A stretch of 32,000 bases of DNA from Alkanindiges sp. WGS2144 (GCF_043950625.1 NZ_CP171007.1); one strand, 5' to 3'; counted from the first letter of the stretch, positions 3,591 to 30,320 are shown. Program-made: numbers and translations. Notes: a model not told the origin generated them from the letters alone.

Positions 3591-3877
3591 CTGAAAACTT
3601 GACAGGTGAGTGCAAAGATTTTGTAAGGGTTTGACACAATTCGATCACTTTTTAACCACTTTATTTTAACGATATTTATCAACAACTTATTAAATTCAAG
3701 TTATTTTTTTTAAATAATTTTTAGGTCGATGAGCCAGATGTTCATTAAATCTACTAATAATTCAACCTTGTATAATTTTTAACCTGATACATTGTAAGCA
3801 CTGGTCGGAAAAGGGTTACCTAAAGCTATATTTTTGCTACACTCCAGCAATATGTCAGGGAGATGAGTTAAAACTAG

Positions 3878-4714: not shown

Positions 4715-5021
4715 ATCCACCTTGCAGGGCTGGTTTTAGCTCAGCGCACCTTAAGCAATAGGTGTTACAGTACTCGGCTGCCTTGCTATTATTTGGTGAT
4801 AAGCAGCTTAACGTCATCTTAATTTTATAAAAAAAAGCCGGCTATTTTAATGGCAAATTGGCTATTTCTATTGAAAATCCCTCATAAAGCTCTACTTTAG
4901 CACTACAGTGTTTGAAGCTTTGATTGCAGTCAAAGCCAGAATGATTCTATAGCGAATATTTTTGCACCCTGTTTTTAGTTGATGGGTGTTTCATCCAAAT
5001 GTTTTTAAGAGGTAAGCGTAC

Positions 5022-5918
5022 ATGATGCGGATTGGTTTGTTTTTGCTGACCAACCTCGCGGTACTGGTAGTGGTTGGTATTATATTGTCTGTTCTGGGCG
5101 TGGGTTCTACGCATGGGCCTGGCGGTTTAAATTATACCAATCTGCTGGTGATCTGCTTTGTTTTTGGTATGGTAGGGTCAATGATTTCCCTGTTCCTGTC
5201 CAAATATATTGCCAAGAAAACCACAGGTACTCAGGTCATTGAAGTTCCACAAAACCCTGCCGAACAATGGCTCATGGATACTGTTGCTGACTTATCCAGC
5301 CGTGTGGGCATTAAAATGCCGGAAGTCGGTATCTTCCCCAGTTATCAGTCTAATGCCTTTGCCACTGGCTGGAACAAAAATGATGCGCTGGTATCCGTCT
5401 CTACCGGCTTGTTAGAGCGCATGAACAAGGATGAGCTGCGTGCTGTGCTGGCACATGAAATTGGTCATGTTGCCAATGGCGATATGGTCACCCTGTCGCT
5501 GATCCAGGGCGTAGTCAATACCTTTGTGATGTTCTTTGCTCGCATTATCGGCAATTTTGTTGACCAAACGGTATTTAAAAATGAAAGTGACCGTCCGGGT
5601 ATGGGATACTTTATCACCAGTATCGTGATGGATATTGTATTGGGCATTTTGGCTTCTGCCATTGTGATGTGGTTTTCACGCATTCGTGAATACCGAGCCG
5701 ATGAAGCAGGTGCACGTTTGGCAGGCAAGCAGGCCATGATCTCTGCCCTGCTGCGCTTGCAGGATGAGCAGCAAATGCCGGATCAAATGCCACAGGAAAT
5801 GAAGGCCTTTGCAATTAGTGCTGGTCAGCAACAAGGCTTTAGTATTGCAGCATTGTTCCAGAGTCACCCCAGCATTGAGCAACGGGTTGCGGCACTACAA
5901 CAACTGAATGTGCACTAA
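5022..5918 (+). CDS. htpX: Membrane zinc protease HtpX
   Basis: [14 protein letters not shown] is nearly identical to the E. coli HtpX N-terminus. The HEIGH zinc motif, NAFATG and four TM segments are present. Confidence 0.92.
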
Positions 5919-5940
5919 AAGTAGTTAAAACTGTGTTTTG

Positions 5941-5987
5941 CACCAATAAAAAACCCTGAATACCATGTTCAGGGTTTTTTATTGGTG
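5941..5987. terminator. Bidirectional terminator shared by convergent htpX and fadH
   Basis: Perfect 20-bp arms, CACCAATAAAAAACCCTGAA (5941-5960) and TTCAGGGTTTTTTATTGGTG (5968-5987), flank a 7-nt loop. A and T runs lie inside the arms. Confidence 0.85.
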
Positions 5988-6007
5988 CAAAAAATATCAA
6001 AAGACCG

Positions 6008-8038
6008 TTATAGTCTGGCAGCCAGTTCAGCCCCATCCCGAATCGCCCGCTTGGCATCCAGCTCAGCAGCCAGCTTTGCACCGCCAATCAGATGATAACG
6101 GGCACCCAGCTGTTCACCCTCGTTAGGCATGAGCTCACGCACCGACTCCTGACCAGCACATGTTACCACCGTATCCACCCGCAACAACTGGCTCTGTCCA
6201 TTAACGGTAATCCATAACCCTTCGCTACTAATGGCTTCATATTCCACACCACGCAGCATACGTACCCCGTGCTTTTTTAACTGGGCACGATGTACCCAGC
6301 CTGAGGTTTTGCCAAGACCCGCCCCTACCGGGGTCGTTTTACGCTGTAACAGATAAATTTGCCGCAATGGTGAATCAACTTGAGGACGTACCAGCCCACC
6401 TTCACTAATATAGTCCGGGCTGGAATCAACCCCCCATTCCCGCTGCCAGTCTGCCAATGGCTGGGGCTGCGGCACAGCCGGGTTATGCAATAAAAATTCA
6501 CCCACATCAAAGCCAATACCGCCAGCACCAATGATTGCTACGCGCTGACCGACTGGTGCACCTTGCAACACTTCAGTATAGGACAGGACATGCGGCAGAT
6601 TGGCACCTTGCAGCTTCAAAGCGCGTGGAACTACGCCGGTTGCGACAATGACATCATCATAGCCTTCACGTTCCAGTTGATCGCGGTTTATCCGTGTGCC
6701 CAGCCGCACCTCTACCCCATTTTTTTTCAACATGGTTTTAAAATAGCGTATGGTTTCATGAAATTCTTCCTTGCCAGGAATCACTTTGGCCAGATTAAAC
6801 TGCCCACCAATATCAGACTGTGCTTCAAACAAAGTGACCTGATGGCCACGGCCTGCAGCCACGGTGGCAGCCGTCATACCAGCTACTCCACCACCTACTA
6901 CAGCAATGCGGCGCGGCTTGCGGGTTTTGACATAAACCAGCTCGGTTTCATAACCAGCGCGCGGATTGACCAGACAGGTGCCACGCTTGTTTTCAAAGGC
7001 ATGATCCAGACACGCCTGATTACAGGCAATACAGGTATTGATTTCATCCACGCGATTGGTGGCAACTTTATTGACCCACTCAGGATCAGCCAACAGAGGA
7101 CGTGCCATTTGAATCAGATCTGCCTTGCCTTCGGCCAGAATACTCTCAGCAGTTTGCGGCATATTAATGCGGTTGGAAGCAATCACCGGGATGGAAACAT
7201 GTTGCCTGACATGCGCGGTAATATCCACGAACGCCGCTCTTGGCACTGAGGTGACAATGGTAGGAATGCGAGCTTCATGCCAGCCAATACCAGTGTTAAG
7301 CAAAGTCACTCCTGCCTGCTCCAGCGCTTGTGCGATGGTGATGACTTCATCCATGGTGTTGCCATCCTGTACCAGATCCAGCATGGACAGGCGAAATGAA
7401 ATAATAAATTTTTCACCCACTGCCTTACGAATGGCTTTGACAATCTCCACTGCAATTTTCATGCGGTTTTCAATTGAGCCACCCCATTCGTCAGTACGCT
7501 GATTAACATGCTGGCTTAAAAACTGGTTCAGCAAATAACCTTCCGAGCCCATAATTTCTACGCCATCATAACCAGCATATTTAGCCAGTCTGGCACAACG
7601 GGCAAAATCACTAATGGTCGCCCAGATCTCCCTATCTGATAACGCCCGTGGCTTAAACATCGAAATAGGAGATTTTATCGGGCTTGAAGACACTACAAAT
7701 GGCTGATATCCATAGCGTCCAGAATGTAAAATCTGCATTAAGATCTTGCCGCCATGGCGGTGTACTGCATGAGTCACCAGTCGGTGATTCAAGGCATCCC
7801 CCAGTGTATTCATGGTGCCACCTGCTGGTAACAACCAGCCTTGCCGGTTAGGTGCGATACCGCCAGTAATCATGAGTGCTACTCCACCCTTGGCACGTTC
7901 AGCAAAATAGGCAGCCAGTTTAGGGTAGTTATAAAAACGGTCTTCCAGGCCAATATGCATTGAGCCCATCACCACACGGTTTTTAAGCTGGGTAAAACCA
8001 AGATCCAGCGGCTCAAGAAGGTGGGAATACGGTTTCAT
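6008..8038 (-). CDS. fadH: NADPH-dependent 2,4-dienoyl-CoA reductase FadH
   Basis: Colinear with E. coli FadH along its whole length: LDLGFTxLKNRVxMGSMH, GYDGVEIMGSEGYLLNQF, INTCIxCNQACLD and VVGGGxAG. The ATG at 8038 is preferred over the TTG at 8044. Confidence 0.92.
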   Translation of the reverse strand: MKPYSHLLEPLDLGFTQLKNRVVMGSMHIGLEDRFYNYPKLAAYFAERAKGGVALMITGGIAPNRQGWLLPAGGTMNTLGDALNHRLVTHAVHRHGGKILMQILHSGRYGYQPFVVSSSPIKSPISMFKPRALSDREIWATISDFARCARLAKYAGYDGVEIMGSEGYLLNQFLSQHVNQRTDEWGGSIENRMKIAVEIVKAIRKAVGEKFIISFRLSMLDLVQDGNTMDEVITIAQALEQAGVTLLNTGIGWHEARIPTIVTSVPRAAFVDITAHVRQHVSIPVIASNRINMPQTAESILAEGKADLIQMARPLLADPEWVNKVATNRVDEINTCIACNQACLDHAFENKRGTCLVNPRAGYETELVYVKTRKPRRIAVVGGGVAGMTAATVAAGRGHQVTLFEAQSDIGGQFNLAKVIPGKEEFHETIRYFKTMLKKNGVEVRLGTRINRDQLEREGYDDVIVATGVVPRALKLQGANLPHVLSYTEVLQGAPVGQRVAIIGAGGIGFDVGEFLLHNPAVPQPQPLADWQREWGVDSSPDYISEGGLVRPQVDSPLRQIYLLQRKTTPVGAGLGKTSGWVHRAQLKKHGVRMLRGVEYEAISSEGLWITVNGQSQLLRVDTVVTCAGQESVRELMPNEGEQLGARYHLIGGAKLAAELDAKRAIRDGAELAARL

Positions 8039-8456
8039 AAACAATCTCTTATTGATAATTTAAGCATTAGGACAATTAGGCGAATATAGAATAAATAATG
8101 GCAACAAGCTAGCAGGATAAAGCAGTGTAATGGGTGGCTGTAGGCGTGTCAGTGACCAATTCGTCAGGATTGGGCACTTAAATTTTTCAACTACACCAAG
8201 TCGAAAGCAATACTAGTTTTCCATACAGGTCAATACCTGAAGCTTGAACCCGCAGGTATAAGCCTGCCCATGGTTTTTGGCAGTCAAGATGTGTTATTTA
8301 TATCAAATCAGATATTTTTTGTTGCGCATTGTATAGTTATGATTGAAGCCATATAGGCGCTTTAAAACAAATGCTATACACTGGCTTCAGAAAGCGCACT
8401 AAAATGATATTTTAGAGCTATCTGCCTAACTTCAAACCATCATGGAAAGACGACAA

Positions 8457-10010
8457 ATGAAAATGAAGTCCCTAGCCACCGCTATTGCGCTCACCATTGT
8501 GCCTGCCTCTAGTGTATTTGCCGCCGCCCTGGATCGTTCAGGACAGTCCATTGCTGCTTTCTTACAACCTGACAACTACTTTGAAGTAGGCATGTCAGTT
8601 CTTGACCCGGATGTATCAGGTAAAGAAGCAGGCACCAGTGCAACCCGTAGAAGCATTAGTGATATGGCAGATGATTATGCTTTTGGTCAGGCAGCCATTA
8701 AAGTACAACCTACTAAAAACTTTTCATTCGGTCTTTTGTACGACCAGCCATTTGGAGCAGATGCTACTTATTCTGGTAATAATATTTTTGTTGCCTCACC
8801 TACTGATACTATTTTAGGTGCAGAGCAACTGGCTGGGATTCGTCAGGATCAAATTACCAACAATATCAATGACCGTCTTCCGGGTGCTCTAGAAGCAAAT
8901 TTGGATGCTGGTGTTGACCGCACAGTTTCTGCACAGGCAGCTAATGCTATTGCTACTAACCCAGAATTGGCCGGTGTTCCGCAAGCAGTAGTAGAAGCTG
9001 GTATTCGCAATGATCCGGCAAAAATGGCAGCCATTACTGCTGGTGTAACTAATGCTATTACCCAACAAGTTACTGATCTAGTTACTGAAGCAGTCAATAG
9101 CGGCATTGATGATGTCAATGGCACTGTTGGCGGCACTGGTGGTGGTACTCATGTAGAAGTAACTACCCAAAACTTAAGTTTCCTGTTTGGCTTTCAACCC
9201 AATGAAAACTGGAACATCTATGCCGGCCCTGTGTACCAGACCATCAAGGGTACCTTAAAATTACGTGGTCAGGGTTACAGCCTGTATAACGGTTATGATG
9301 CCAGCATTCCAGAAGATAGCGCCTGGGGCTGGCTGGCGGGTGTGGCCTTCCAGATTCCTGAAATTGCTTTAAAAGCTTCGGTGACCTATCGCTCTGAGAT
9401 TGATTATGACACTAATATCAGAGAGACCATTCCGACCTTAGGTGCTTTGGCATTGCTGGGTCAGGATCCAACAGCTATTGCTAATGCTCAGGGCTTAACC
9501 TCTATTACTACGCCAAAATCTGTAAACGTTGACTTCCAGACCGGGATTATGGCAGATACAGTAGCCTTTGCTAACCTGCGCTGGGTGCCATGGTCTGACT
9601 TCTCCATCCAACCACATAAATTTGGTTTACTGTCTCAGGCAGTTGGCCCACTGGTTGGTCAGCCTAACGGCTTTAATCTGGTTGAATATGCCGATGACCA
9701 ATGGTCTGCCAACGTAGGTGTAGGCCGCAAACTGAATGATCAGTGGGCCGGCAATGTCTCTGTTGGCTGGGATTCAGGTGCTGGCAACCCAGTTACTACG
9801 CTTGGCCCAACTGAAGGCTATTGGAACGTTGGTTTCGGCGTACAATACAGCCCAGCCGCCAACTACTTTGTTGCTGGTGGCCTGAAATACTTCTGGCTAG
9901 GTGATGCCAAGGCTCAAACTGGTGCACAGGCAGGTACTAATGCTTTTGTTGCGGACTTTACTGATAACCACGCCATTGCGTATGGCCTAAAATTAGGCTA
10001 CCGCTTCTAA
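8457..10010 (+). CDS. Outer-membrane long-chain fatty acid/hydrophobic compound channel, FadL/OMPP1/TodX family
   Basis: Signal peptide MKMKSLATAIALTIVPASSVFA. The mature N-terminus ALDRSGQS resembles FadL. Alternating beta-strand pattern, and a C-terminal YGLKLGYRF ending in Phe. Transcribed divergently from fadH. The start is M6 of the ORF-track entry. Confidence 0.75.
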   Translation: MKMKSLATAIALTIVPASSVFAAALDRSGQSIAAFLQPDNYFEVGMSVLDPDVSGKEAGTSATRRSISDMADDYAFGQAAIKVQPTKNFSFGLLYDQPFGADATYSGNNIFVASPTDTILGAEQLAGIRQDQITNNINDRLPGALEANLDAGVDRTVSAQAANAIATNPELAGVPQAVVEAGIRNDPAKMAAITAGVTNAITQQVTDLVTEAVNSGIDDVNGTVGGTGGGTHVEVTTQNLSFLFGFQPNENWNIYAGPVYQTIKGTLKLRGQGYSLYNGYDASIPEDSAWGWLAGVAFQIPEIALKASVTYRSEIDYDTNIRETIPTLGALALLGQDPTAIANAQGLTSITTPKSVNVDFQTGIMADTVAFANLRWVPWSDFSIQPHKFGLLSQAVGPLVGQPNGFNLVEYADDQWSANVGVGRKLNDQWAGNVSVGWDSGAGNPVTTLGPTEGYWNVGFGVQYSPAANYFVAGGLKYFWLGDAKAQTGAQAGTNAFVADFTDNHAIAYGLKLGYRF

Positions 10011-11771: not shown

Positions 11772-12049
11772 AAGCAGAAAATATAAATAAATTGTCAGAC
11801 AGTCGTGATCAATTTAAAGGATTCCAACCAGAAAACAAGACTCAATATATTCATTTTAAAAAAGTATTTTCTTTAAATTAAACAGGTTAATAAACATTTA
11901 ATTTTCCTGATATACATACATGCGATGATAAAATATCGTGCTACAATGCAAAATATTGTCTTACAGTTAGTAAAAACAGGTGTTCTTGCGTCAAGATGGT
12001 GCTGGCACTGGTAAATTATATAAGAAACTACAGCTTGGAGAAGTTTAAC

Positions 12050-13438
12050 ATGCGTCCGCTCAGTCCCATTGACTTTATTTTTCTAACTCTGGAAAAACGT
12101 CAGCAGCCTATGCATGTGGGTGGCTTGTTTTTGTTCAAACTTCCAGAAAATGCACCCGCCGACTTTGTCCATCAGCTAGTTGAAGACATTCGTAATTCAC
12201 GTGCTGTTCCTGTGGCACCATTTAACCAGGTGCTTAATGGCCTGCTCTGGGGCGAAGATGAAGAGTTCGACCTGGATCAGCATTTTCGTCATATCTCCCT
12301 ACCACATCCGGGGCGTATCCGCGAATTACTGGTATATGTATCCCAGGAACACAGTGCACTGATTGACCGCGCCAAGCCCCTCTGGGAATGCCAGATTATT
12401 GAAGGTATTGAAGGCAACCGCTTTGCAATGTTCTTTAAGATGCATCACGCCATGGTGGATGGTGTAGCCGGAATGCGATTACTGGAAAAATCGCTCTCCC
12501 ATTCGCCTACTGAAAACAGCATTGTGCCGCCATGGTGCGTCAAGAACAATAAGCTTAAACGTCCAAAAACCAGCCCAATTAGCAAAACCACCAAACTGTT
12601 GCGACTGGTCACCGACCAGATAAAAACCGTTCCTAACCTAAGCCGCGAGTTAACCCATACTCTGGTTCATGAGATGCGTAGCAACCCGGATTATGTCTCT
12701 ACTTTTCAGGCGCCAAAATGTATTTTTAACCAGCCAATCAGTGCATCACGACGTTTTGCCGCACAGTCTTATGAACTGGCGCGTTTTCGTACTATTGCCA
12801 AAAAGCTGGATGCCACCATTAATGATGTGGTGCTGGCAGTATGTTCAGGCGCCTTACGCTCCTATCTGATTGGGCAGCGAGCCTTGCCTAAAAAGCCCCT
12901 TATTGCCATGGTACCCATATCGATTCGTCAGGATGACAGTGACAGCGGCAACCAGATTTCCATGATTCTGGCCAATCTGGGCACCCATAAAGGTGATCCA
13001 ATGGAACGCCTGAATATTATTAAACGTAGTGTTTCCAACGCCAAAAGCCGTTTTGGCCGTATGAATCCCACTGAAATTCTAGGTTATAGCGGTGTGGTCT
13101 ATGCCATGGCAGGCCTCAATTTGCTTTCTGGTGCCATGCCACGTCATCAGGCTTTTAATCTGGTCATCTCCAACGTGCCCGGGCCACGAGAACCACTGTA
13201 CTGGAATGGTGCCAAGCTGGATGCGCTTTATCCGGCTTCGGTACTCATGGATGGTCAGGCGCTAAACATTACCCTGACTAGTTATCTGGATAAACTGGAA
13301 GTAGGTATTACTGCCTGCCGCAGCACCCTGCCACGGGTACAAAGCCTGCTGGCCTTGCTGGAAGAAGAAATTCAGACCTTTGAGCAGTTAACCCGGCATA
13401 TCACACTACCAGCCAGTCCATCCAACCTGGTTTCTTAA
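12050..13438 (+). CDS. atfA: Wax ester synthase / acyl-CoA:diacylglycerol acyltransferase (WS/DGAT)
   Basis: MRPLSPIDFIFLTLEKRQQPMHVGGLFLF and the catalytic HHAMVDGVAG motif closely resemble Acinetobacter baylyi AtfA. The ATG at 12050 is preceded by GGAGAAG. Confidence 0.9.
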   Translation: MRPLSPIDFIFLTLEKRQQPMHVGGLFLFKLPENAPADFVHQLVEDIRNSRAVPVAPFNQVLNGLLWGEDEEFDLDQHFRHISLPHPGRIRELLVYVSQEHSALIDRAKPLWECQIIEGIEGNRFAMFFKMHHAMVDGVAGMRLLEKSLSHSPTENSIVPPWCVKNNKLKRPKTSPISKTTKLLRLVTDQIKTVPNLSRELTHTLVHEMRSNPDYVSTFQAPKCIFNQPISASRRFAAQSYELARFRTIAKKLDATINDVVLAVCSGALRSYLIGQRALPKKPLIAMVPISIRQDDSDSGNQISMILANLGTHKGDPMERLNIIKRSVSNAKSRFGRMNPTEILGYSGVVYAMAGLNLLSGAMPRHQAFNLVISNVPGPREPLYWNGAKLDALYPASVLMDGQALNITLTSYLDKLEVGITACRSTLPRVQSLLALLEEEIQTFEQLTRHITLPASPSNLVS

Positions 13439-20586: not shown

Positions 20587-20591
20587 TTGAA

Positions 20592-20645
20592 GACAAAACC
20601 TCCTTGTAAACTGGATAAAATTTTCCAGCTTGCAAGGGGGGTTTT
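20592..20645 (+). terminator. Probable cysN terminator (imperfect long hairpin)
   Basis: AAAACCTCCTTGTAAACTGGA pairs imperfectly with TCCAGCTTGCAAGGGGGGTTTT, mainly through CTGGA/TCCAG and CCTTG/CAAGG, and ends in TTTT. Confidence 0.45.
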
Positions 20646-20673
20646 AACATACCGCAGCTCGCATCAATACTTC

Positions 20674-20826
20674 CTAATAGGTTTCCTGACGGAAATGACC
20701 ATGATATCGGTATTCTCTACGACCACCAATTTGACTAATTACATATATAGAAAAAATTGGTTCAGTATTGAAATAGCGGATTAACCATAATGCGCCCATT
20801 ACATCCTGAATATGATGAGAAGTCAT
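20674..20826 (-). CDS. Possible small ORF (50 aa), unknown
   Basis: Translation from the ATG at 20826 is MTSHHIQDVMGALWLIRYFNTEPIFSIYVISQIGGRREYRYHGHFRQETY. It is below the ORF-track cut-off, I see no SD, and I recognise nothing in it. Confidence 0.15.
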   Translation of the reverse strand: MTSHHIQDVMGALWLIRYFNTEPIFSIYVISQIGGRREYRYHGHFRQETY

Positions 20827-21032
20827 AAATTTATGTAAAAATTAGATTATAAGATACCCATTTTGCTCAAAAATGATTAGTCATGCAATATATTAATTAT
20901 TTTTCATGGGTTTTGCATAAAAATCATTAAAGGCAAATAGGATGAATTAGTGTCTGTTTTTGCTAAACACTAAGCTGGTCAAGTCATACATATACATCAA
21001 TATTGTGTTAACCCGCTTATAAATATCCTCCT

Positions 21033-21147
21033 GATCAACAACACACTGTAACCAGCGAAGAATGTGCAGCAAGGTGAAATTTTAGAGCGTCTATTATTGC
21101 AAGCTAGTATTGTTTCTATTGCCTTTACTAAACTATCTGCGCGTTAA
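21033..21147 (+). pseudogene. Diverged, frameshifted remnant of a cysN 3' end
   Basis: By hand alignment, 21033-21070 matches 20293-20330 at 29/38 nt and 21071-21119 matches 20384-20432 at 36/49 nt. A 53-nt gap, bounded by a TGCAGC direct repeat, separates the two blocks. Translations are QQHTVTSEECAAR* and, in the other frame, GEILERLLLQASIVSIAFTKLSAR*. The intact CysN has [12 protein letters not shown] and [18 protein letters not shown]. Confidence 0.75.
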
Positions 21148-21278
21148 ATTACCCTACTCTACAATACTTTTACTACCATGCCAGCGATAACCAAGCTTAG
21201 ACTGGCTCTTTTGTTAGTGCAAAAAATACTTAAAAACTCTGCAAACAGATTTTAAGATTTGTTAGGTCATAAATATAA

Positions 21279-21303
21279 TAAAAAGCGGCTTAAGCCGCTT
21301 TTC
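21279..21303 (-). terminator. Terminator of the four-gene operon
   Basis: Perfect 16-nt palindrome AGCGGCTTAAGCCGCT (21284-21299). On the minus strand a T-run follows it (the A5 at 21279-21283), about 15 nt after the stop of the last gene. Confidence 0.8.
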
Positions 21304-21317
21304 TATTAACTAAATTC

Positions 21318-22790
21318 TTAACAGAACGTTAAGCCACCATAGCAGTTAGGCCTTACTTCCTGATTTTTTAGTTGTTGATTTTCCAATGTGATTCTGGCTG
21401 GATTGGCTAAAGTATAATCATTTAGATCAATAATAATTTGTTTAGTGATAGGATTATTAGCAACGGCGCCTAAAGCCTCACCAAAGTCCACATAAATTCT
21501 GTTTTCCTCTTTCATCAGATCTTGAGTTATTAACGCTGCAACCTGAGGTAGAACTGAACTAATATCAACCTCATTACTTGCTTGCAGATAGCCTAATTGC
21601 ACAGGCTCAGCAAAAGACATCCACCATCCCTTTTGCGCTACATCGCTTTGAGTCATTTGGGTAATATTAGTTTTACTATTATCAGCAGCATCTACGTAAG
21701 CCCCTGGCCATAATAAAGCTTGTTGCTGTAAAGATAGATAGCCACCTGTACCAGTTAAAGGGATATTATGAATCATACTTAAAGCCTGCTCAAAAGTAAT
21801 ATTCATATTTAAATTAGTAATTTTCGAGCCTGTTCCCATTTTAAAAGTAGCTTCATCTACAATGCAAACGATAATTTTTACGCATGGGTCCACAGCAACT
21901 TGTAATTGATCATTAGCGAACATACTTGCTGCATAATTTGGATTTCCTGCAGCAAGGGGAATTTCACCAATTTTAGTAGTGACATTGTTTGCAACTGCTT
22001 TGGTTTGGCGCTGCCCATTGACCTGAAAAGCTGGTAAATTAAACTCTACATTACTCATGCTAGGAACCGTAATCCCTGTGGTTTTGCTATTGCTAGGTAA
22101 ACTCGTAATTCCACGATTTCCAAATAGGGCAATATCAATTAAGCCACTAATAGCTTGATTTGCAGCCCCTTTACCAAATTTAGTAGCCTGAGTAGTGACA
22201 TCTCCTGTGGTAGCTGCAATACGCATAAAACCACTTAAAGACTGGATACCATCTGTACTTGAAGGAGTAGCACTGTTCAGAAGACCTGCAGTTAATAAGC
22301 CAGTAATTTTTTCAGCGCTTGCTCGAAAACCAACTACCTCTCTAGTGGAAGCCGTCTCAGGGTTTTTAATCGCAAACTCCATAAATGGATTAGTTAGCTT
22401 AGCACTTGTTGAAGGTCTACCATTATTATAAACAGGATTTCCATTTGCATCATAGCTATCTGGCAAGCCACTTAATGACAAATTTTTAATGTCAATATCA
22501 CAGGCACCTGCACCGTTAGTACCGCCACACCCTAATTGCAAGTTTCTAATGTTAGCATTAAGTTCCATTTCTGCTTCCAGACCCAACTTATAAAAACCTA
22601 CATTACCATTGCGGGTATTACCTGTATCGTTAGGTGCAATATAAGACATATTAAATAGTGCTTGACCTGTCTCAGCAGCCATTTCATCATCGGATAAACT
22701 GGTTAGTCCTATTTCAGCATAAGACGTAGCACTGATTGACATCAACATACCTATAGAAGTTGCCAAAGCCATATGTTTAAATTTCATCAT
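21318..22790 (-). CDS. Secreted cluster protein 4 (about 490 aa), unknown function
   Basis: Signal peptide MMKFKHMALATSIGMLMSISATSYA. The mature N-terminus is EIGLTSLSDDEMAAETGQALF. Cys pairs are C-x8-C, C-x5-C and a terminal C-x6-C, with C as the last residue. The ATG at 22790 has AAGGAT 8 nt upstream; the ORF-track extension to 22853 overlaps the upstream gene and is rejected. Confidence 0.85.
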   Translation of the reverse strand: MMKFKHMALATSIGMLMSISATSYAEIGLTSLSDDEMAAETGQALFNMSYIAPNDTGNTRNGNVGFYKLGLEAEMELNANIRNLQLGCGGTNGAGACDIDIKNLSLSGLPDSYDANGNPVYNNGRPSTSAKLTNPFMEFAIKNPETASTREVVGFRASAEKITGLLTAGLLNSATPSSTDGIQSLSGFMRIAATTGDVTTQATKFGKGAANQAISGLIDIALFGNRGITSLPSNSKTTGITVPSMSNVEFNLPAFQVNGQRQTKAVANNVTTKIGEIPLAAGNPNYAASMFANDQLQVAVDPCVKIIVCIVDEATFKMGTGSKITNLNMNITFEQALSMIHNIPLTGTGGYLSLQQQALLWPGAYVDAADNSKTNITQMTQSDVAQKGWWMSFAEPVQLGYLQASNEVDISSVLPQVAALITQDLMKEENRIYVDFGEALGAVANNPITKQIIIDLNDYTLANPARITLENQQLKNQEVRPNCYGGLTFC

Positions 22791-22809
22791 CTTGCTCATC
22801 CTTAGCCGA

Positions 22810-25242
22810 TTAATTACGTGGCACAATGCCGAGTTGACTGGAAATGCGTCCACCAGTAATAACCATTTCGCCTAACCGTTGTGGTGCACCTGTGCTAAAT
22901 GTTGCACCTGATCCTGTACCTGTTTGTACACTGGGATATAAATTAATATCTTTTACTCTAAATACTTCTGCAGGTTGATGATCTGGATTAAATGTAAATT
23001 CTGCATTAAACCCTACTTTACCTTCACCAGGATTAAGCGTTCCTGCTGTAGTAGAGTTCCTGCTAATTGCAATAGAGTTGTTAAAACGTATTTTGCCAAC
23101 AATATTGTCGAAGCCTAATACTGAACCATCTGTAGGTTCACTAATCTGAATCGTATTACCCACAGTGTCAGCAGGCATATTAAAATCACCCACAATGGAT
23201 AACTTTGCACCATCATCAATGTTGTTATTTGGAATCAAGGAGAAGTCCATAGCACCCTGTAAGCGCAATTTTAAACCAAATAATACATCATTATTTGAGG
23301 CAAAGTTAGTATCGCTTACTTTCACACCTGATGAGTTCATTGCACCTGGTAGATACCCAGCAGCTACCTGACCCGCCATAACAATTAAAAGATCAGGTAA
23401 GGACATATTAACTGAACCATTCTCAAAGCCCATGCTGCCTGTACCTTTAAGCAACATGTCAATATTTCGTAAACCTATGTATTGATTGTTTACCGCATCT
23501 ACCACCATAATTGAAGTGGTTTTGCTGCCATCGTCGCTTAGGCCTTGGGCGCTTAATGCTAAAGACAGCCCTAGACGTTGTGTATTACTAACAGTGCTAC
23601 GTACTACATTATTGTTATTATCTAACGCAAAAATCGGTGTATCGCTAGCACTGGTAGTACCCGACAGCGCTAAGTTAGCATTTACATTATAGAAAGGTAG
23701 ACCTAAACCCCACTTATTGTCTGTACCGCCTATAAATGTATGAGCTGGCGAATTTCCAGCGGTAGAGGTAAAGCGGCCACGCTTAGACACTGCCTGAAAA
23801 TCCATGCCGCGGACAGCAAGTACCATAGCATAAGGATTTGTATTGCCAGTTCCCGTATGAATATACTGGGTATAATCATCTGCTGAAGTTACTGTTCCGT
23901 TTGCACCAAACTTTGCAGCATTGAGTGCAGCATTTTGTGGCATTAACAATTGTTTAGTATCAGTCAGGTTAAGGTATACATTGCCACTATCAAAATAAGC
24001 ACGCTGAGAACTCCCTACAACCAATGGTGATAATTCACCAAATTCAAAGCCATAAGTATTATCACCTGCACCGCCAATTTCAAGTGTAGTTGCCTCACCA
24101 CCGCCTGCTAGCATACTATCCCCAGACTTGGTAAATTCAGCGTACATCCTTGCTGCAATCCCTGTGCTTCCAATCACCGTAGCATTATCACCCGATGGCG
24201 TAGGGTTCACTCCTGTGGTGGCCTTGCCTAATATATTACCCATGCTAGAGCCTGCAGGATCAGCTGCCCCTGTTGCATTGACGCCACGCACCTGTAATGA
24301 CGCATTGACTACACGACCATTTGCGCCCACGCGGATCAATCCTTTAGCATTATCCAGACTGTAAGGATCGCCCAATGTCATGTCGGCATCTTTTTTGGTC
24401 ATGAGTTCCAGATTAAGCCCAGAGGTAGTACCATTATAAGTACCTCCAGCTGGCGTACCGACTAACTTAGCTACTCTTGTTAAATCTGCATAACCATAGA
24501 TATTATTTGGAGCTTGATTTAATGAAGCAGGTGTAGCACTTCCCACATTGGTTTGTAATACCAAGCCGCCACTATCAGTAATAAAAATAGCGCCCTTTGC
24601 AGCAAAGTTAAAATTCAAATTTTTAAGAATAAGTTGGTTATTAAGATTAGAGCCAGTGGGCGAGGCATGACTAATATACACATTATTATTGACTAGGCCT
24701 AAATTAATGGTCGCCTGCTTGTTCTGGTTAAACAGGCCGTCACTAGTAACTAGTGAAATTTTACTTGGTGATGTTGACTCTATGGCCAATGAGCCCAATG
24801 AACTACCACAAATTCCAGGTTCTGTATCACAGATATTTAAACTATTTACCGTAATTAAAGATGGGTTGGACTGTAGACTCAATGACAAGCCCGCAGTGCT
24901 GCCATTACTACCAGCATCAAGTTCTAGTACAGTACCTGGTGCTACCCCACTACTGTTTGCTTTAATTACAACGCCATTGGCATTTGCGCGCAGTTCTTTA
25001 TCTACACCTGCGGCATTAGCAACGGTACCTGAACTGCTGCCTGCGTTATCTTGCCAATACAACTGATCCAAGTCCACTTGATCATACTGAACGGTTACTT
25101 GGACGCCGTCCTGCCCATCTATTTTGCGTAGGTCTTGCTCACTCATTTCTTGCAAAGCATACGTTGGCAGATTCAGCAGTATTAAACTACTAGCTAATGC
25201 AGACAAAGCAAAATACCGAGAAGTTACATGTTTAAATGTCAT
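22810..25242 (-). CDS. Secreted cluster protein 3 (810 aa), Gly/Asn/Ser/Thr-rich, unknown function
   Basis: Signal peptide MTFKHVTSRYFALSALASSLILLNLPTYA. The mature N-terminus is LQEMSEQDLRKIDGQDGVQV. A single Cys pair lies in NICDTEPGIC. Few charged residues, and a beta-rich repetitive texture. AGGGA SD upstream. Confidence 0.85.
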   Translation of the reverse strand: MTFKHVTSRYFALSALASSLILLNLPTYALQEMSEQDLRKIDGQDGVQVTVQYDQVDLDQLYWQDNAGSSSGTVANAAGVDKELRANANGVVIKANSSGVAPGTVLELDAGSNGSTAGLSLSLQSNPSLITVNSLNICDTEPGICGSSLGSLAIESTSPSKISLVTSDGLFNQNKQATINLGLVNNNVYISHASPTGSNLNNQLILKNLNFNFAAKGAIFITDSGGLVLQTNVGSATPASLNQAPNNIYGYADLTRVAKLVGTPAGGTYNGTTSGLNLELMTKKDADMTLGDPYSLDNAKGLIRVGANGRVVNASLQVRGVNATGAADPAGSSMGNILGKATTGVNPTPSGDNATVIGSTGIAARMYAEFTKSGDSMLAGGGEATTLEIGGAGDNTYGFEFGELSPLVVGSSQRAYFDSGNVYLNLTDTKQLLMPQNAALNAAKFGANGTVTSADDYTQYIHTGTGNTNPYAMVLAVRGMDFQAVSKRGRFTSTAGNSPAHTFIGGTDNKWGLGLPFYNVNANLALSGTTSASDTPIFALDNNNNVVRSTVSNTQRLGLSLALSAQGLSDDGSKTTSIMVVDAVNNQYIGLRNIDMLLKGTGSMGFENGSVNMSLPDLLIVMAGQVAAGYLPGAMNSSGVKVSDTNFASNNDVLFGLKLRLQGAMDFSLIPNNNIDDGAKLSIVGDFNMPADTVGNTIQISEPTDGSVLGFDNIVGKIRFNNSIAISRNSTTAGTLNPGEGKVGFNAEFTFNPDHQPAEVFRVKDINLYPSVQTGTGSGATFSTGAPQRLGEMVITGGRISSQLGIVPRN

Positions 25243-25267
25243 GATTTTTATCCCTAAACTTGTCTAT

Positions 25268-25951
25268 CTAGCAACGTGGATGCCCAGAGTCACAGCTAAA
25301 GACTTTAATCGTCCCTGCTACAGAAAGGTTACCATTGATATTAAGGCCTGTAAAACCTGTTTCACGGCCAAAATCAAATTGGTTAGTGGTATCGGTATAC
25401 TTACCATTAACATAGGCTGTTGCTCCCGCTCCACCACTGCCCGCAGCTAAATACCCTGGTGTTCCACCTTCGTTAACTTGCTCGTCAGTCTCAATGGATA
25501 GGGCACTAAAACCAAGATTACGTATTTGAATTGGTTTTTTGGGATCAAAACTTAATTGAACGCTCGGTTTAATGATATTGCCATATGCCAGATCAACACC
25601 TTCCAATGCCATTTGCTGGACATTGATAGATCCTTGAATGCCCTTAAATACCAACCATAACTTTTTACCCGTTGCTGATGGAGTACGTACACCATTTAAG
25701 TCATACGTATCTTGAGTCCCATCATGATATCTATTATTAATTGCTAAAGCCAAACGACAGTACTTGAGATCAGCACAGCCTACATCATCAAACACGCCAG
25801 GGGAGGTATGATTTAAACGCAAGTCCAGATTAATATAGGCGCCTGCTTGTCCATCAACTTGCTGCATATCACTATTGGTTAATACCTCTAAAGCTGCATT
25901 TGCAGAAGCTGCAAAGCATAGTAAAGAGGAAACGATGATTAAATTTTTCAT
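25268..25951 (-). CDS. Secreted cluster protein 2 (227 aa), candidate small/major subunit, unknown function
   Basis: Classical signal peptide MKNLIIVSSLLCFAASANA. The mature N-terminus is ALEVLTNSDMQQVDGQAGAY. Cys pairs lie in GCADLKYC and in a terminal CDSGHPRC, with C as the last residue. A GAGGA SD overlaps the upstream stop. Confidence 0.88.
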   Translation of the reverse strand: MKNLIIVSSLLCFAASANAALEVLTNSDMQQVDGQAGAYINLDLRLNHTSPGVFDDVGCADLKYCRLALAINNRYHDGTQDTYDLNGVRTPSATGKKLWLVFKGIQGSINVQQMALEGVDLAYGNIIKPSVQLSFDPKKPIQIRNLGFSALSIETDEQVNEGGTPGYLAAGSGGAGATAYVNGKYTDTTNQFDFGRETGFTGLNINGNLSVAGTIKVFSCDSGHPRC

Positions 25952-25961
25952 TGATTTTTCC

Positions 25962-27941
25962 TCATAGTCCTTTAGTGGTGATTTTCATATGCTGAATCAA
26001 CAATCCGTCGATAACTGCAGAACCAAAATTATTATCAAAAGAAATAGGGGCTGAGATAGTAGGAGTAGGCGGCGGCGCTATACCAGCAGAGGTTTCGTTG
26101 GTATAACCAAGCGCAGCATTAGTTGCGGGCATCCATATTGCATTAGATAGGCCCCAGTTACGGTTATTAGCTGTAGGAAGTTGTGCATTACTTGGATTTG
26201 TATTCTTAGCAGGCACTGGCTTAGGGTCTAAGGCACTGTAGCTATTAGGTTGACCTGATTTATACTCCCAATCAGTTATTGTGCCCGTATCACACCGGTT
26301 CAACCAATTACAATTGTATTGCCAAGTTCTATTACGCGGCTGACGGTAACGTGACTCCACCTCGGTATATGACTGACTTGCTGTATTTGTAGTTGTATTT
26401 AAAGATCCAAATGAAATCCCAATAGCTTCTTCGCCTTTATAGGCTTCCAAAGAATTAGTAGCTGCATTATATACGGTTGAACCAATGCTAATACTACTAT
26501 GAGTTGCATTTGAGCCTTGATAAGTCACACCGTCAAGCGTGACATCATTACCACACTTATAAATATTACAAGTCGACCCATAATAGCCACCATTTGTTGC
26601 AGGATTAGAATTGGCATAATTTGTATAGACTTTTTTATAGATGCTCTCTTTATTTGGAATACGCGCGAGTTCAAGCGTAATGTTATTTCCATCTGTACCA
26701 ACGGTAAGGGGTTGATATAATGAACCCAATACCAAATTAACATTTAAATTGTAAATAAACAAACCTTCAGTATTATCAAAAGTAGGTGCCTGTCCGCCAT
26801 TGATTGCAGGAGTACTCAATAACCCTTGACCTGTACCTGTTTCACGTGTACTTAAACGTAATACACTACCAGATGAGGGAGTAATTGTTTTAGTTGAAGT
26901 ATCTATTGTTTCCCGCTTTCTAACTTGAAATTGACAGCCAGCACTGTAATTTGGCGCAACGCCTGCATTACCATTGTTACAGCTTGCACCAGAATTAAGT
27001 TTACCTGCATTATTACCATCATGCAGCATTTGCCAATCTCCTGCACGCGTTTTCTTCTCTGTAATTATTGCGCGTACTGTTTCACCATCACCACTATTTA
27101 GCCTCAGAGTACCTGCCATACCCAATGTATTATTATAAAACGTACTCATCCCTTTTTGATTGGTAGCACCGCCCAATGTTTGGAATAGTTTGAGGTTACT
27201 TCCATTAATACTCAAACCGTCCCATACAGCTTGTAGTCGCAAGCGGTTTGCACGATTGGCTCCCCCTAAATCAAATTGAGTGCCTGTAGCTGCCATATCC
27301 TCTTTAACTTTAGGATCACGCACAAAAATATCAGCCCAAGCGCCCAATTTTAGATTGTATGCTGATTTTTCTGCATCAGACAAAGCACTGATATTTTTAT
27401 CATACAAAGGTGCTTCTAACATAAGATAGGTGACATCACCCTTACCCGAATCAGTAGGAGATGTGGCAGAGAAATTTGGCACATCATTTTCAGTCGTTAC
27501 TTTTAACAACCAAGGGTTAATTGCACTTCCCCAAGAATCAATATTACGCCCGAACCTGTTATTCCAGTCAGTAGCGTCACGGTTGGCGCCGTAGTTTTTA
27601 TTGGACTGGGAAATAGCAAAACCGTATAAGAAGATATCAGCCTTGCCTGCCCCACTTGCTGATGCTTCAGGAGTTAAAGGACCTACGGGAATTAAGCGAA
27701 TATAACCCGTATCATTGGCGCGATTGTCTAAATAGGCTTGATCAGGATTAGTATTATTAGCACCCTGCATTACCATACTAAATTTTTCAGGTAAAACTGC
27801 AATCCCCTCACCTGTAGATTCTGCCAAGTCTTCATCATCAATGGCTTGTAGCGCAAAAGATGCAGTCGACATTAAAGACAGGCTGATAGATAACGCCAGT
27901 GTGCTTAACTTAAAACCAGACTCAAGATGTAAATTAGACAT
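25962..27941 (-). CDS. Secreted cluster protein 1 (659 aa), unknown function
   Basis: Signal peptide MSNLHLESGFKLSTLALSISLSLMSTASFA. The mature N-terminus is LQAIDDEDLAESTGEGIAV. Three short Cys pairs (C-x14-C, C-x4-C, C-x5-C). Asn/Gly/Thr-rich with a Pro-rich stretch near the C-terminus. AAGGAAGG SD upstream. Confidence 0.85.
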   Translation of the reverse strand: MSNLHLESGFKLSTLALSISLSLMSTASFALQAIDDEDLAESTGEGIAVLPEKFSMVMQGANNTNPDQAYLDNRANDTGYIRLIPVGPLTPEASASGAGKADIFLYGFAISQSNKNYGANRDATDWNNRFGRNIDSWGSAINPWLLKVTTENDVPNFSATSPTDSGKGDVTYLMLEAPLYDKNISALSDAEKSAYNLKLGAWADIFVRDPKVKEDMAATGTQFDLGGANRANRLRLQAVWDGLSINGSNLKLFQTLGGATNQKGMSTFYNNTLGMAGTLRLNSGDGETVRAIITEKKTRAGDWQMLHDGNNAGKLNSGASCNNGNAGVAPNYSAGCQFQVRKRETIDTSTKTITPSSGSVLRLSTRETGTGQGLLSTPAINGGQAPTFDNTEGLFIYNLNVNLVLGSLYQPLTVGTDGNNITLELARIPNKESIYKKVYTNYANSNPATNGGYYGSTCNIYKCGNDVTLDGVTYQGSNATHSSISIGSTVYNAATNSLEAYKGEEAIGISFGSLNTTTNTASQSYTEVESRYRQPRNRTWQYNCNWLNRCDTGTITDWEYKSGQPNSYSALDPKPVPAKNTNPSNAQLPTANNRNWGLSNAIWMPATNAALGYTNETSAGIAPPPTPTISAPISFDNNFGSAVIDGLLIQHMKITTKGL

Positions 27942-28278
27942 GTGGCAAGCCTTCCTTTTTTAATGCATAAATGCACACGCAGTGTGCTTTATTTCAATGA
28001 ATCCCTGGCGCATCAAAAGGATATTATTGTTTTTACCTTCTGAGACATATAGCATGATATACAATACTACACTTTGTATTATGCGGTTTATTTATAAAAA
28101 TGCAAAAAATGTTTTGTTGTTAAGCAGTCATAAGGTCTGCTGTGACACAATTTATTTTTATTTTATAAATACAAAACAATTACTTAATCAAGGAAAACCG
28201 TTTATCGGGTTATTTTTCCACCTATCACAACCCAGGAAAGTCTCAATAGAGCATGAAAATGCTAACCCAAATTGCTAC

Positions 28279-28887
28279 TTATTCGGAAAGCTGTTCAGGT
28301 TCTGCCAACTGCTCAGCTTTTTGCTCCTGCCACTTCAGCATATCTTCATTTTTCACCCGCTCGTAAATAGCCGATACTGTGGTCTGTAGCCCAATAGATT
28401 CAAATATTACTGCATCATCCAAATAAAAATGCTCAGATTGCCAGCCATTACTACGCCGTTGAATTTCCACATCCACAAAGTCTTGTTCAATCAAGATATA
28501 TTCTTGTAGTGTGGGAATTTTTATATATTGGTCGCGTTTGAAAGTCTTGTCATGCTGACGGGTAGATTTTGATAAGACCTCGACAATAAGCGTAGGACTT
28601 TCGGTAAAATAACCGTCCACATCGGTGCAGTCCACCATTGCATCAGGATAAAAGTATTTACTGCCAATCTTAACTTTCATATCTGAGGTATAAGGCTGGC
28701 AGGGTTTAGTTTCCAAGTGGTTTGCCAATTTTTTCAACAAATTAACACTAATCACATTATGGTTGCTGTGCGCACCTACCATGGCATAAACATGGCCATC
28801 TATATATTCATGTTTAATATCACTCAGCTGCTCACCAGCCAGATATTCTGCTTCACTGATAGTAGAAAACTTGCTGACAATATTCAT
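28279..28887 (-). CDS. Uma2-family (DUF820) putative PD-(D/E)xK endonuclease
   Basis: YLAGEQLSDIKHEYIDGHVYAM...PDAMV...PTLIVEVLSKST...D...K...Y...IPTLQEYILIEQD matches the Uma2/DUF820 pattern (HEYxxG, then D...EVxS). AGGAGAAG SD upstream. Confidence 0.75.
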   Translation of the reverse strand: MNIVSKFSTISEAEYLAGEQLSDIKHEYIDGHVYAMVGAHSNHNVISVNLLKKLANHLETKPCQPYTSDMKVKIGSKYFYPDAMVDCTDVDGYFTESPTLIVEVLSKSTRQHDKTFKRDQYIKIPTLQEYILIEQDFVDVEIQRRSNGWQSEHFYLDDAVIFESIGLQTTVSAIYERVKNEDMLKWQEQKAEQLAEPEQLSE

Positions 28888-29630: not shown

Positions 29631-30320
29631 CTAAGACTTTAATAAATTTTGCTGACTCAGTGCCGAATATATTATTTGAATAAGCTCATCGGCCATATTC
29701 ATTTTTTTTAGGCATTGTCTTAAGTAGTTCTCATCTTGAATTAACAGCAAGGAGGCATGAAAAGCTTTAACCACTGCCCCACCGTAGGCTTCTTCTGCTT
29801 TGCTCCATGCTTCTAATGGAATGCTTCCCCAATGGTGAATCATCATTGCAATATCAATAATATCCCTGCTAGCAGTTGATTTATCCAGCCCCCTGTCTGT
29901 ATTGGCAAGCAGTTTTTCAGCAAACATGTCATGTCTTGATAGCAAGGGAATATTAAAATGAGGATAATGATCACCAGAAATTGGAATACGCCCCTCGCTG
30001 GCAATTTCAAATTTTATGGGCGTGCCGTTAATTTCAATGAAAGTTCGAATACCATAACGATCCGTGCGAACTTCACGTAATAATTTAATGGGTTGTTTAA
30101 ATAATGCGCCCAGCGTATTGGGTGAAACTGTGTTGCGTAATAGGCGGCAGCCATGCTTTGAAGCGCATAAAAAATCAATATCAACCGACTCTCTGTATTC
30201 CTCAAGCAGCAGCGTAATTGCTGTACCCCCTGCGAAATAACATTCAGCTTCCTGCAATAACTCTGAATTAAGCAAGTTTAATGCCTGACTAATATGCTGA
30301 TGGTGCAGCCGCTTAAACAT
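29631..30320 (-). CDS. Nucleotidyltransferase, AbiEii/AbiGii (DUF1814)-like putative toxin
   Basis: The N-terminal NTase signature FAGGTAITLLLEEYRESVDIDFL (GGTA...DxD) is followed by a helical C-terminal half. It overlaps the upstream small ORF by 8 nt. Confidence 0.65.
   Translation of the reverse strand: MFKRLHHQHISQALNLLNSELLQEAECYFAGGTAITLLLEEYRESVDIDFLCASKHGCRLLRNTVSPNTLGALFKQPIKLLREVRTDRYGIRTFIEINGTPIKFEIASEGRIPISGDHYPHFNIPLLSRHDMFAEKLLANTDRGLDKSTASRDIIDIAMMIHHWGSIPLEAWSKAEEAYGGAVVKAFHASLLLIQDENYLRQCLKKMNMADELIQIIYSALSQQNLLKS

Follow-up and report, generated by a model that had tools for sequence, protein, structure and literature searches.

Four Sec-exported proteins of Alkanindiges sp. 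WGS2144 share a FilA-type leader and are candidate cargo of a Fil-type export system

The operon and its products

A stretch of 32,000 nucleotides (nt) from Alkanindiges sp. WGS2144 (GCF_043950625.1, NZ_CP171007.1), hereafter the window, contains four adjacent genes on the minus strand (21318-27941), here called A to D, for which a previous sequence-only reading had proposed a candidate surface-fibre or adhesin system. The four products are predicted to be exported by Sec, and share a short motif directly behind the signal peptide, which links them to FilA of the Acinetobacter fil operon and suggests that they are cargo of a Fil-type secretion system. The operon comprises the following features.

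25962-27941, minus strand: gene A, open reading frame (ORF) of 659 amino acids (aa)
25268-25951, minus strand: gene B, ORF of 227 aa
22810-25242, minus strand: gene C, ORF of 810 aa
21318-22790, minus strand: gene D, 490 aa, counted from ATG
27942-28278, minus strand: upstream AT-rich region with a promoter-like site, from base composition and a consensus promoter scan
21303-21280, minus strand: intrinsic terminator at the operon end, with a 10-bp stem (5 GC pairs), a 4-nt loop and a T-rich tail

The genes are separated by only 10 (A/B), 25 (B/C) and 19 (C/D) nt, and purine-rich stretches resembling Shine-Dalgarno (SD) sequences precede the four ATG codons (AAGGAAGG, GAGGAAAAA, TAGGGATAAAAA and TAAGGATGA). 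The mechanically called ORF for gene D starts from a GTG at 22853 (511 aa, overlapping gene C), and was rejected in favor of the ATG at 22790, because the latter results in an SD and a 19-nt gap, and is where the N-termini of the orthologues align. The GC content is 0.32 at 28000-28299, compared with ~0.40 in the coding sequence, and the promoter scan found TTTGCA-17-CATAAT at 28106-28078, a match that by itself is no evidence of function. The single-strand layout, the AT-rich upstream region and the strong terminator are as the sequence-only reading had described them.

As read from the sequence, each product begins with a signal-peptide-like N-terminus, with a core of hydrophobic residues and a cleavage site of the small-x-small type (SFA, ANA, TYA and SYA for A to D), in keeping with the Sec export proposed earlier. 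The composition is likewise charge-poor and rich in G, N, S, T and A, which each make up 6.6-11.7% of the four products, while D, E, K and R sum to 14-17%. The gene A product is beta-rich, contains no Pfam family past its N-terminus, and has as its orthologue a 677-aa hypothetical protein of the Acinetobacter baumannii complex (45% identity); its 555 homologues (E <= 0.001), where named, are all from Moraxellaceae, except for two metagenome-assembled genomes (MAGs) labelled only Pseudomonadota. The gene B product is a small DUF6160 protein, 40% identical to Ab241, with 83 representative clusters. The gene C product is a large beta-rich protein of DUF6160 type with the legacy label 'heme utilization protein', and the gene D product (1087 homologues, 40% identical to Ab492) has no match in Pfam or NCBIfam. 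The products of C and D are each identical in sequence to a WGS2144 protein annotated as hypothetical. Homologues of A, C and D number from hundreds to more than 1000, with the named ones nearly all from Moraxellaceae (Alkanindiges, Acinetobacter, Agitococcus and unclassified MAGs), and their annotations are hypothetical, DUF6160 or 'heme utilization protein', and nothing else.

DUF6160 (PF19657) is a 96-residue domain with a gathering cutoff of 27 bits for the whole protein. It scores 29.7 bits with B, 26.8 with C (just below the cutoff) and 14.8 with A, and does not match D, so only B exceeds the cutoff; the matches span only the signal peptide and leader region. The FilA model (NF050077, cutoff of 220 bits over 279 positions) gives 35.6 bits for C, 15.9 for A, 12.3 for B and none for D, compared with 330 for true FilA, and the four proteins were ruled out as FilA-F orthologues. 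Beyond this N-terminal region, they gave just two sub-threshold Pfam matches, and PDB sequence searches with all four returned nothing relevant. Searches of Pfam and NCBIfam with the four proteins found no chaperone, usher, secretin, ATPase or barrel domain, no C-terminal autotransporter barrel or N-terminal two-partner secretion domain, and no Fap family or amyloid repeat family. No fimbrial fold or family, PapD-like chaperone or usher was detected either in these proteins or in a Pfam scan of 20 other ORFs of the window, as the sequence-only reading had stated for chaperone and usher genes. Chaperone-usher, curli, two-partner secretion, autotransporter and type II secretion readings were set aside for want of any defining domain, and the structure models of A and C showed no significant fold match to an autotransporter or two-partner secretion exoprotein.

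AlphaFold 2 (AF2) models of the A and C products are confident, and both are antiparallel beta meanders. The model of A is mostly beta, with a predicted local distance difference test (pLDDT) score of 82 and a predicted template-modelling (pTM) score of 0.72, and that of C (pLDDT 86.9, pTM 0.84) is 53% strand, with 13 strands of at least 12 residues. Foldseek found no structural neighbor for either in the PDB, or for C in BFVD (best E 0.009, template-modelling (TM) score <= 0.11, and <= 0.08 for A against the PDB), and their folds are left unnamed because of this.

Cysteines occur as close pairs, as noted earlier for the window proteins, and this is conserved: of the 441 sequential Cys pairs in the four families, 433 are spaced by at most 20 residues and 8 by more, with a median spacing of 7-8 residues. 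B contains a conserved Cys59-Cys65 pair in addition to a C-terminal C220-x6-C227. An invariant C-x6-C closes the extreme C-terminus in the B family as well as the D family (C220/C227 and C483/C490; window positions 25268-25297 and 21318-21347), a second feature common to these two. Work by Leyton et al. from 2011 is said to have found that autotransporter passengers pass a 12-stranded barrel only with such short Cys loops. The outer-membrane pore FapF of the Pseudomonas Fap system is structurally autotransporter-like (PMC5557850). The close pairs would fit export of an unfolded chain through a narrow pore, a circumstantial argument drawn by analogy.

A leader with the register of double-glycine leaders

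The motif following the signal peptide, here called the leader, is located as follows.

27807-27854, minus strand: leader of A (A30-E45: A followed by LQAIDDEDLAESTGE), directly after the signal peptide (residues 1-30); leader-model score 26.4
25847-25894, minus strand: leader of B (A20-Q35: ALEVLTNSDMQQVDGQ), following the ANA signal peptidase site; leader-model score 25.0
25111-25158, minus strand: leader of C (A29-Q44: A followed by LQEMSEQDLRKIDGQ); leader-model score 25.1
22662-22709, minus strand: leader of D (G28-Q43: GLTSLSDDEMAAETGQ), two residues past the SYA site; leader-model score 23.9

Within the window, the leader model scores only these four ORFs, the model itself having been built with them included. 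Profile-profile comparison (hhalign) of the orthologue families aligns the N-termini of A and C (E 7e-8), B and C (E 4e-7), B and D (E 6.6e-6) and A and D (E 2.7e-5), which places the common motif noticed in the sequence-only reading beyond chance. The consensus, 15-17 residues in length, is [A]-[LM]-x-x-[LMI]-[DSTN]-[DEN]-x-[DE..]-[LM]-x-x-[VIT..]-x-G-[QE]. When the conserved Gly is numbered -2, the 155 unique orthologue sequences have A at -16 (61%), L/M at -15 (98%), L/M/I at -12 (100%), D/S/T/N at -11 (89%), D/E/N at -10 (99%), D/E at -8 (58%), L/M at -7 (100%), V/I/T/S/A at -4 (90%, with V/I alone at 47%) and G at -2 (94%), followed at -1 by Q (73%) or E (26%), and by G in 2/155. Positions +1 to +3 after the motif ([ADG]-[GLI]-hydrophobic) are likewise conserved. 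The signal peptidase site abuts -16/-15, and the periplasmic pro-protein would therefore start with a minimal leader of 15-17 residues. The pLDDT score is <50 over the signal peptide and leader of both AF2 models (residues 1-44 of A, 23-43 of C), and the leader is detached from the rest of the protein as a short isolated helix (residues 35-43), which argues for a targeting signal, as previously proposed, or a processing signal, rather than a part of the fold.

The consensus of double-glycine leaders, which are recognized by C39 peptidases, has hydrophobic residues at -12, -7 and -4 (and -15), an acidic residue at -8 and Gly at -2 (PMC6363468). The window leaders have this hydrophobic and acidic register, but without Gly, Ala or Ser at -1. 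They are also not located at the extreme N-terminus of a cytoplasmic precursor read by the C39 domain of an ATP-binding cassette (ABC) exporter, since a Sec signal peptide precedes them. The N-terminal extension of chaperone-usher pilins and the N22 segment of curli CsgA, to which the motif had been compared, are thus not the best fit: like them, the leader is a short mature N-terminal segment that might direct a subunit to outer-membrane machinery, but it has no likeness to them in sequence or register, is predicted to be helical and C39-leader-like instead of a Gly-rich segment or donor strand, and is accompanied by no CsgG/E/F, chaperone or usher.

The leader in FilA and its relation to Fap

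The A. baumannii fil operon codes for FilA, a C39 peptidase, a 'pilus assembly protein', an outer-membrane transporter, FilE and the lipoprotein FilF, according to Supplementary Table S3 of a published study (PMC4751259). The NCBIfam models of the Fil proteins (NF050077-NF050081 and NF033645) bear the label 'putative pilus system'. Complete fil operons were taken from metagenome contigs by way of the published filF sequence. One of these contigs, L017 (9529-10001), when compared with L016 (7037-10001), lacks ~2.5 kb comprising most of filD-filE between filC and filF, a loss that either occurs naturally or arose during assembly; L016 was taken as the reference since L017 is without filD-filE.

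FilA contains DUF6160 together with a signal peptide and leader of the same type (AM followed by QSMDDAALSAATGQDG), and its N-terminal motif is the motif of the window proteins. Hidden Markov models (HMMs) of all four window families match only FilA among FilA-F, and always at its N-terminus (E 7e-14, 3.9e-7, 1.4e-5 and 1.6e-3), with the E 7e-14 match of the gene C family reflecting homology over ~210 N-terminal residues. FilB-F are without the leader, by both the family HMMs and the leader model. Of the DUF6160/Fil link made in the sequence-only reading, the part concerning DUF6160 (matched by B, C and A) and FilA is borne out, and the part concerning FilB-F is not. The 'thick pilus' attribution could not be confirmed, as the one review found connects thick pili with twitching motility, for which type IV pili are responsible.

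FilB (NF050078) is a C39 peptidase that also matches FapD at 3e-31, FilC (NF050079) matches the FapF pore at 1.5e-15, and FilD is of the FadL/OmpP1 type. FilB is a stand-alone protein of 279 aa with a hydrophobic N-terminus and no ABC domains, and can be aligned to the double-Gly protease LahT150 (6MPZ), with the catalytic Gln, Cys, His and Asp-Pro motifs kept in 9/9 aligned FilB/FapD-like sequences. FapD is periplasmic, and its catalytic Cys is needed for secretion, while its substrate is not established, with the FapE N-terminus suspected (PMC5557850, PMC6173800, PMC12822426). The Fil literature consists of expression and vaccine studies of FilF, which is up in pellicles and biofilms, and literature searches for DUF6160 and for Acinetobacter FilB, FilC and FilD returned nothing mechanistic, with a single incidental mention of DUF6160.

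Association of the leader with FilB loci

To collect FilB loci, the catalytic motif D[YF]SCGSAALTT was turned into a degenerate DNA pattern and looked for in species-representative genomes, which gave at least 120 loci; among those listed, FilB is coded in 120, FilC in 105 and FilD in 88. For detection of the leader, a strict regular expression gave 7 matches only and missed FilA-type variants, and a 20-position HMM was used instead, derived from the four window families alone, which do not adjoin filB. The leader is coupled to FilB-type loci in many genera. The HMM found 89 matches (score >= 8) in the 2511 ORFs of the 120 listed loci, compared with 0 in reversed sequences, and about three-quarters of the 89 begin at residues 18-45, right behind a signal peptide. 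A same-strand leader gene lies upstream of filB in 68 of the 96 listed loci with at least 1.5 kb of upstream DNA, including those of Acinetobacter (27/27), Pseudomonas (14/14), Thalassolituus (3/3), Ideonella (3/3) and Desulfatibacillum (1/1). Apart from the leader, the tagged proteins at filB loci are unlike one another, with lengths of 143-445 aa.

The listed loci are mostly from genera of hydrocarbon degraders (Marinobacter, Alcanivorax, Oleiphilus, Oleispira, Thalassolituus, Bermanella, Alkanindiges and Acinetobacter), with Desulfatibacillum alkenivorans, Ideonella benzenivorans and Pseudomonas benzenivorans/nitroreducens as further examples. Together with the FadL-type FilD, this apparent enrichment of FilB loci in oil degraders gives a tentative hint of a function in attaching to hydrophobic substrates.

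A tblastn search of PLSDB with FilB found FapD-like genes in Cupriavidus, Polymorphobacter, Croceicoccus, Aeromonas, Indioceanicola, Photobacterium and Vibrio, located on chromids and mislabelled chromosomes. (Whole chromosomes filed as plasmids in this database include those of A. baumannii, 3.7-4.1 Mb, and Aeromonas caviae, 4.9 Mb; NZ_CP104448.1, NZ_CP064203.1, NZ_CP077849.1, NZ_AP026896.1.) At most of these Fap-type loci, the FapE-like gene right behind the peptidase gene codes for a signal peptide and a leader ending in G-G, G-R or G-K, and the small gene preceding the fapD-like gene is often tagged likewise. Examples are LGLASLTDDEMSSLRGG and ITDYELATMRGG, with the general form ...[ED][LM]..x.G-G or G-R. 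Such near-canonical double-glycine leaders on FapE-like genes bear on the question of the FapD substrate.

Conservation of the cassette and location of the Fil machinery

The four-gene set is kept across Alkanindiges, Acinetobacter (including A. baumannii) and other Moraxellaceae. The A-B-C-D order recurs in Alkanindiges hydrocarboniclasticus, where dcd and cysN enclose the cassette, and in a Moraxellaceae MAG, in another genomic context. The order in the A. baumannii complex is dcd-D-A-B-C, with a fifth, FilA-like gene, and in Acinetobacter sp. ANC 3832 it is dcd-D-D'-A-B-C, D being the first gene of the Acinetobacter locus and at times tandemly duplicated. In Moraxellaceae bacterium AER2_44_116, a gene for a 1078-aa protein (3682-6918), with no Pfam match and no leader-model score, lies directly upstream of A-B-C-D. 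In the loci compared, the cassette is not accompanied by a transporter, chaperone or protease gene.

Fil machinery is present in the genus Alkanindiges. Taken together, two Alkanindiges illinoisensis genomes contain a tandem of four leader-bearing filA paralogues (3536-7432 of L036), followed by filB-F, with identities to Acinetobacter of 66-71% (filB), 64% (filC), 70% (filD), 31% (filE) and 25% (filF), and this species also has homologues of A and C. The statement of the sequence-only reading that export is explained by no known pathway was therefore too strong, as a Fap-like route, comprising the C39 peptidase FilB and the FapF-like FilC, exists in the genus. The dcd-linked cassette and the fil operon occur together in 5/5 A. 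baumannii chromosomes of PLSDB, at a distance of 133-138 kb in the two records with both on one strand. Among the listed FilB loci, those of Marinobacter, Oleiphilus and Bermanella contain filB-filC-filD and then a lipoprotein-like gene, with no adjoining cargo gene, and their cargo is therefore either coded elsewhere or more divergent. Unlinked Fil cargo seems to be common.

Flanking genes of the window

The neighbors of the operon are dcd, a Uma2 endonuclease gene, an AbiEii-like gene and cysN/cysD. The Uma2-family endonuclease and AbiEii-like toxin genes (28279-28887 and 29631-30320) flank dcd, between apbC/mrp and the operon, and look like small insertions because A. hydrocarboniclasticus is without them at the same position. 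Between the cysN stop and the operon terminator lies a 730-bp AT-rich non-coding gap (20587-21317, GC content 0.31-0.34). The 20 other window ORFs scanned are housekeeping genes, toxin or endonuclease genes, or without a Pfam match, and the Pfam scan found no Fil-type machinery families among them. Two sizeable ORFs (315 and 522 aa) are without a Pfam match, and a wax-ester synthase/diacylglycerol acyltransferase (WS/DGAT) gene fits an alkane-degrading lifestyle (jointly 564-1511, 8442-10010 and 11996-13438).

Proposed pathway and alternatives

We propose, with a probability of roughly 60%, that the operon codes for four 'orphan' cargo proteins of a Fil-type secretion/assembly system, a branch of a Fap-like hybrid pathway, which are processed and exported in trans. 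In all four, a Sec signal peptide is directly followed by a FilA-type leader, the feature by which the proposed class of Fil cargo is defined. In this pathway, each protein would be carried across the inner membrane by Sec, and signal peptidase I would expose the 15-17-residue leader as a new N-terminus, which would fold into a short amphipathic helix with the double-glycine register. A periplasmic C39 cysteine peptidase of the FilB/FapD type, coded elsewhere, would then bind the leader and probably remove it after G-Q/E. The unfolded chain would thread through the FapF-like outer-membrane pore FilC, with FilD, FilE and FilF as accessory proteins, and would fold once outside, giving beta-rich structures of the cell surface or matrix that possibly act as fibres or adhesins.

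The system closest to the operon is the fil operon itself, in which FilA bears the same signal peptide, leader and DUF6160 (with the first ~210 residues of C homologous to it), and which is present in the same genomes or genus as the four-gene set. The window operon differs in that no FilB-F genes are adjacent to it, and it forms a separate locus beside dcd in both Alkanindiges and Acinetobacter. The Fap system of Pseudomonas is alike in the homology of FapD and the trimeric pore FapF to FilB and FilC, in its Sec-exported cargo, in the need for a periplasmic C39 peptidase, and in the double-Gly-type leader that most FapE-like neighbors carry behind the signal peptide. The window proteins, however, are not FapB, FapC or FapE, are far larger, are predicted to form globular or elongated beta folds, and have leaders ending in G-Q/E and not G-G, while Fil adds the FadL-type FilD, FilE and the lipoprotein FilF. 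The leaders of bacteriocins and ribosomally made, post-translationally modified peptides, processed by C39 domains of peptidase-containing ABC transporters or of ABC transporter maturation and secretion proteins (e.g. LahT150, ComA), have an identical helix register. In contrast to the window leaders, they are read in the cytoplasm by an ABC transporter and not in the periplasm after a Sec signal peptide; the window cargo is a protein of 227-810 aa instead of a peptide, with Q/E at -1. Passengers of type Va autotransporters are likewise beta-rich, G/N/S/T/A-rich and low in charge, with close Cys pairs only, but they have an attached C-terminal barrel, whereas the pore for the window proteins would be a separate protein.

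Several observations weigh against the proposal. To our knowledge, every characterized C39 substrate has Gly, Ala or Ser at -1, compared with Gln or Glu here, and cleavage is therefore unproven. Curated double-glycine leader families in NCBIfam and Pfam did not match the bare 30-residue leader segments (E <= 10), the scan returning only FilA/DUF6160 and one E 0.13 match to an unrelated phosphotransferase system family, so that the double-glycine likeness rests on register and not on a family match. The profile-profile alignment of A with B is weak (E 9.5e-5), and the best alignment of C with D is not N-terminal. None of the 14 listed Marinobacter loci has a leader gene upstream of filB (0/14), and the adjacency of leader and filB is therefore not universal. 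No FilB or FilC is coded in the window, and none for WGS2144 is among the matches listed. We also know of no precedent in the family for export of 490-810-aa proteins through a pore such as FapF, which exports small unfolded amyloid subunits, and the surface location is a prediction for every orthologue.

An alternative, nearest to the docking signal suggested in the sequence-only reading, is that the motif is a docking or chaperoning tag, bound but not cleaved by FilB acting as a C39-like domain, by a periplasmic part of FilC or by neighboring subunits, and kept as an N-terminal extension for subunit assembly. Non-catalytic C39-like domains that merely chaperone their substrates do exist in type 1 secretion systems (PMC5557850), and the Q/E at -1 and the conservation of +1 to +3 would suit an uncleaved tag. 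The intact catalytic motifs in 9/9 FilB/FapD-like sequences, the need for the FapD catalytic Cys in secretion, and the predicted helix (residues 35-43), which is no donor strand, make it unlikely. Still more improbable is that the motif is just an inherited N-terminal piece of a paralogous DUF6160 domain (e.g. capping a beta-rich fold) and plays no part in targeting, in proteins that remain periplasmic or exit through a general pathway, for example type II secretion. The treatment of the region by Pfam as part of a 96-residue domain, the ~210-residue homology between C and FilA, and the A-D and B-D profile alignments reaching ~100 columns are in line with such inheritance. Against these stand the occurrence of the same 15-17 residues at the head of 143 to 825-aa proteins without other detectable similarity, always abutting the signal peptidase site and unpacked in the AF2 models, and the tracking of the motif with FilB-type loci across Proteobacteria classes among the loci listed, with 0 control matches. 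That the operon is self-sufficient, with A or C forming an outer-membrane beta-barrel or exporter of its own, is hardly credible: although both models are antiparallel beta meanders with long strands, and the top non-significant Foldseek rows are mostly TonB-dependent transporters, LptD and FapF, no E value is better than 0.009 and no TM score exceeds 0.11, the C-termini (...TTKGL, ...IVPRN, ...HPRC, ...LTFC) show no terminal aromatic beta-signal, no outer-membrane protein family in Pfam or NCBIfam matches, and the machinery proteins FilC-F are without the leader that these four carry.

Implications for Fil and Fap systems

Tentatively, the G-Q/E leader could be the missing recognition signal of periplasmic C39 peptidases of the FapD/FilB type, and could mark a widespread and largely unrecognized export pathway of Proteobacteria, prominent in hydrocarbon degraders, in which a C39 peptidase, a FapF-like pore and a FadL-like protein serve unlinked cargo genome-wide, including large non-amyloid beta-proteins. 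The link between leader and peptidase, the G-Q/E variant and the orphan cargo operon appear to be undescribed in the literature searched. The question of what the FapD-type C39 peptidase acts on dates from 2017, with FapE still only 'thought to' be its substrate, and the leader provides a concrete peptide to test. It also permits genome-wide prediction of Fil cargo, which in A. baumannii would include at least FilA and five conserved proteins beside dcd, in a priority pathogen for which FilF is already pursued as a vaccine antigen.

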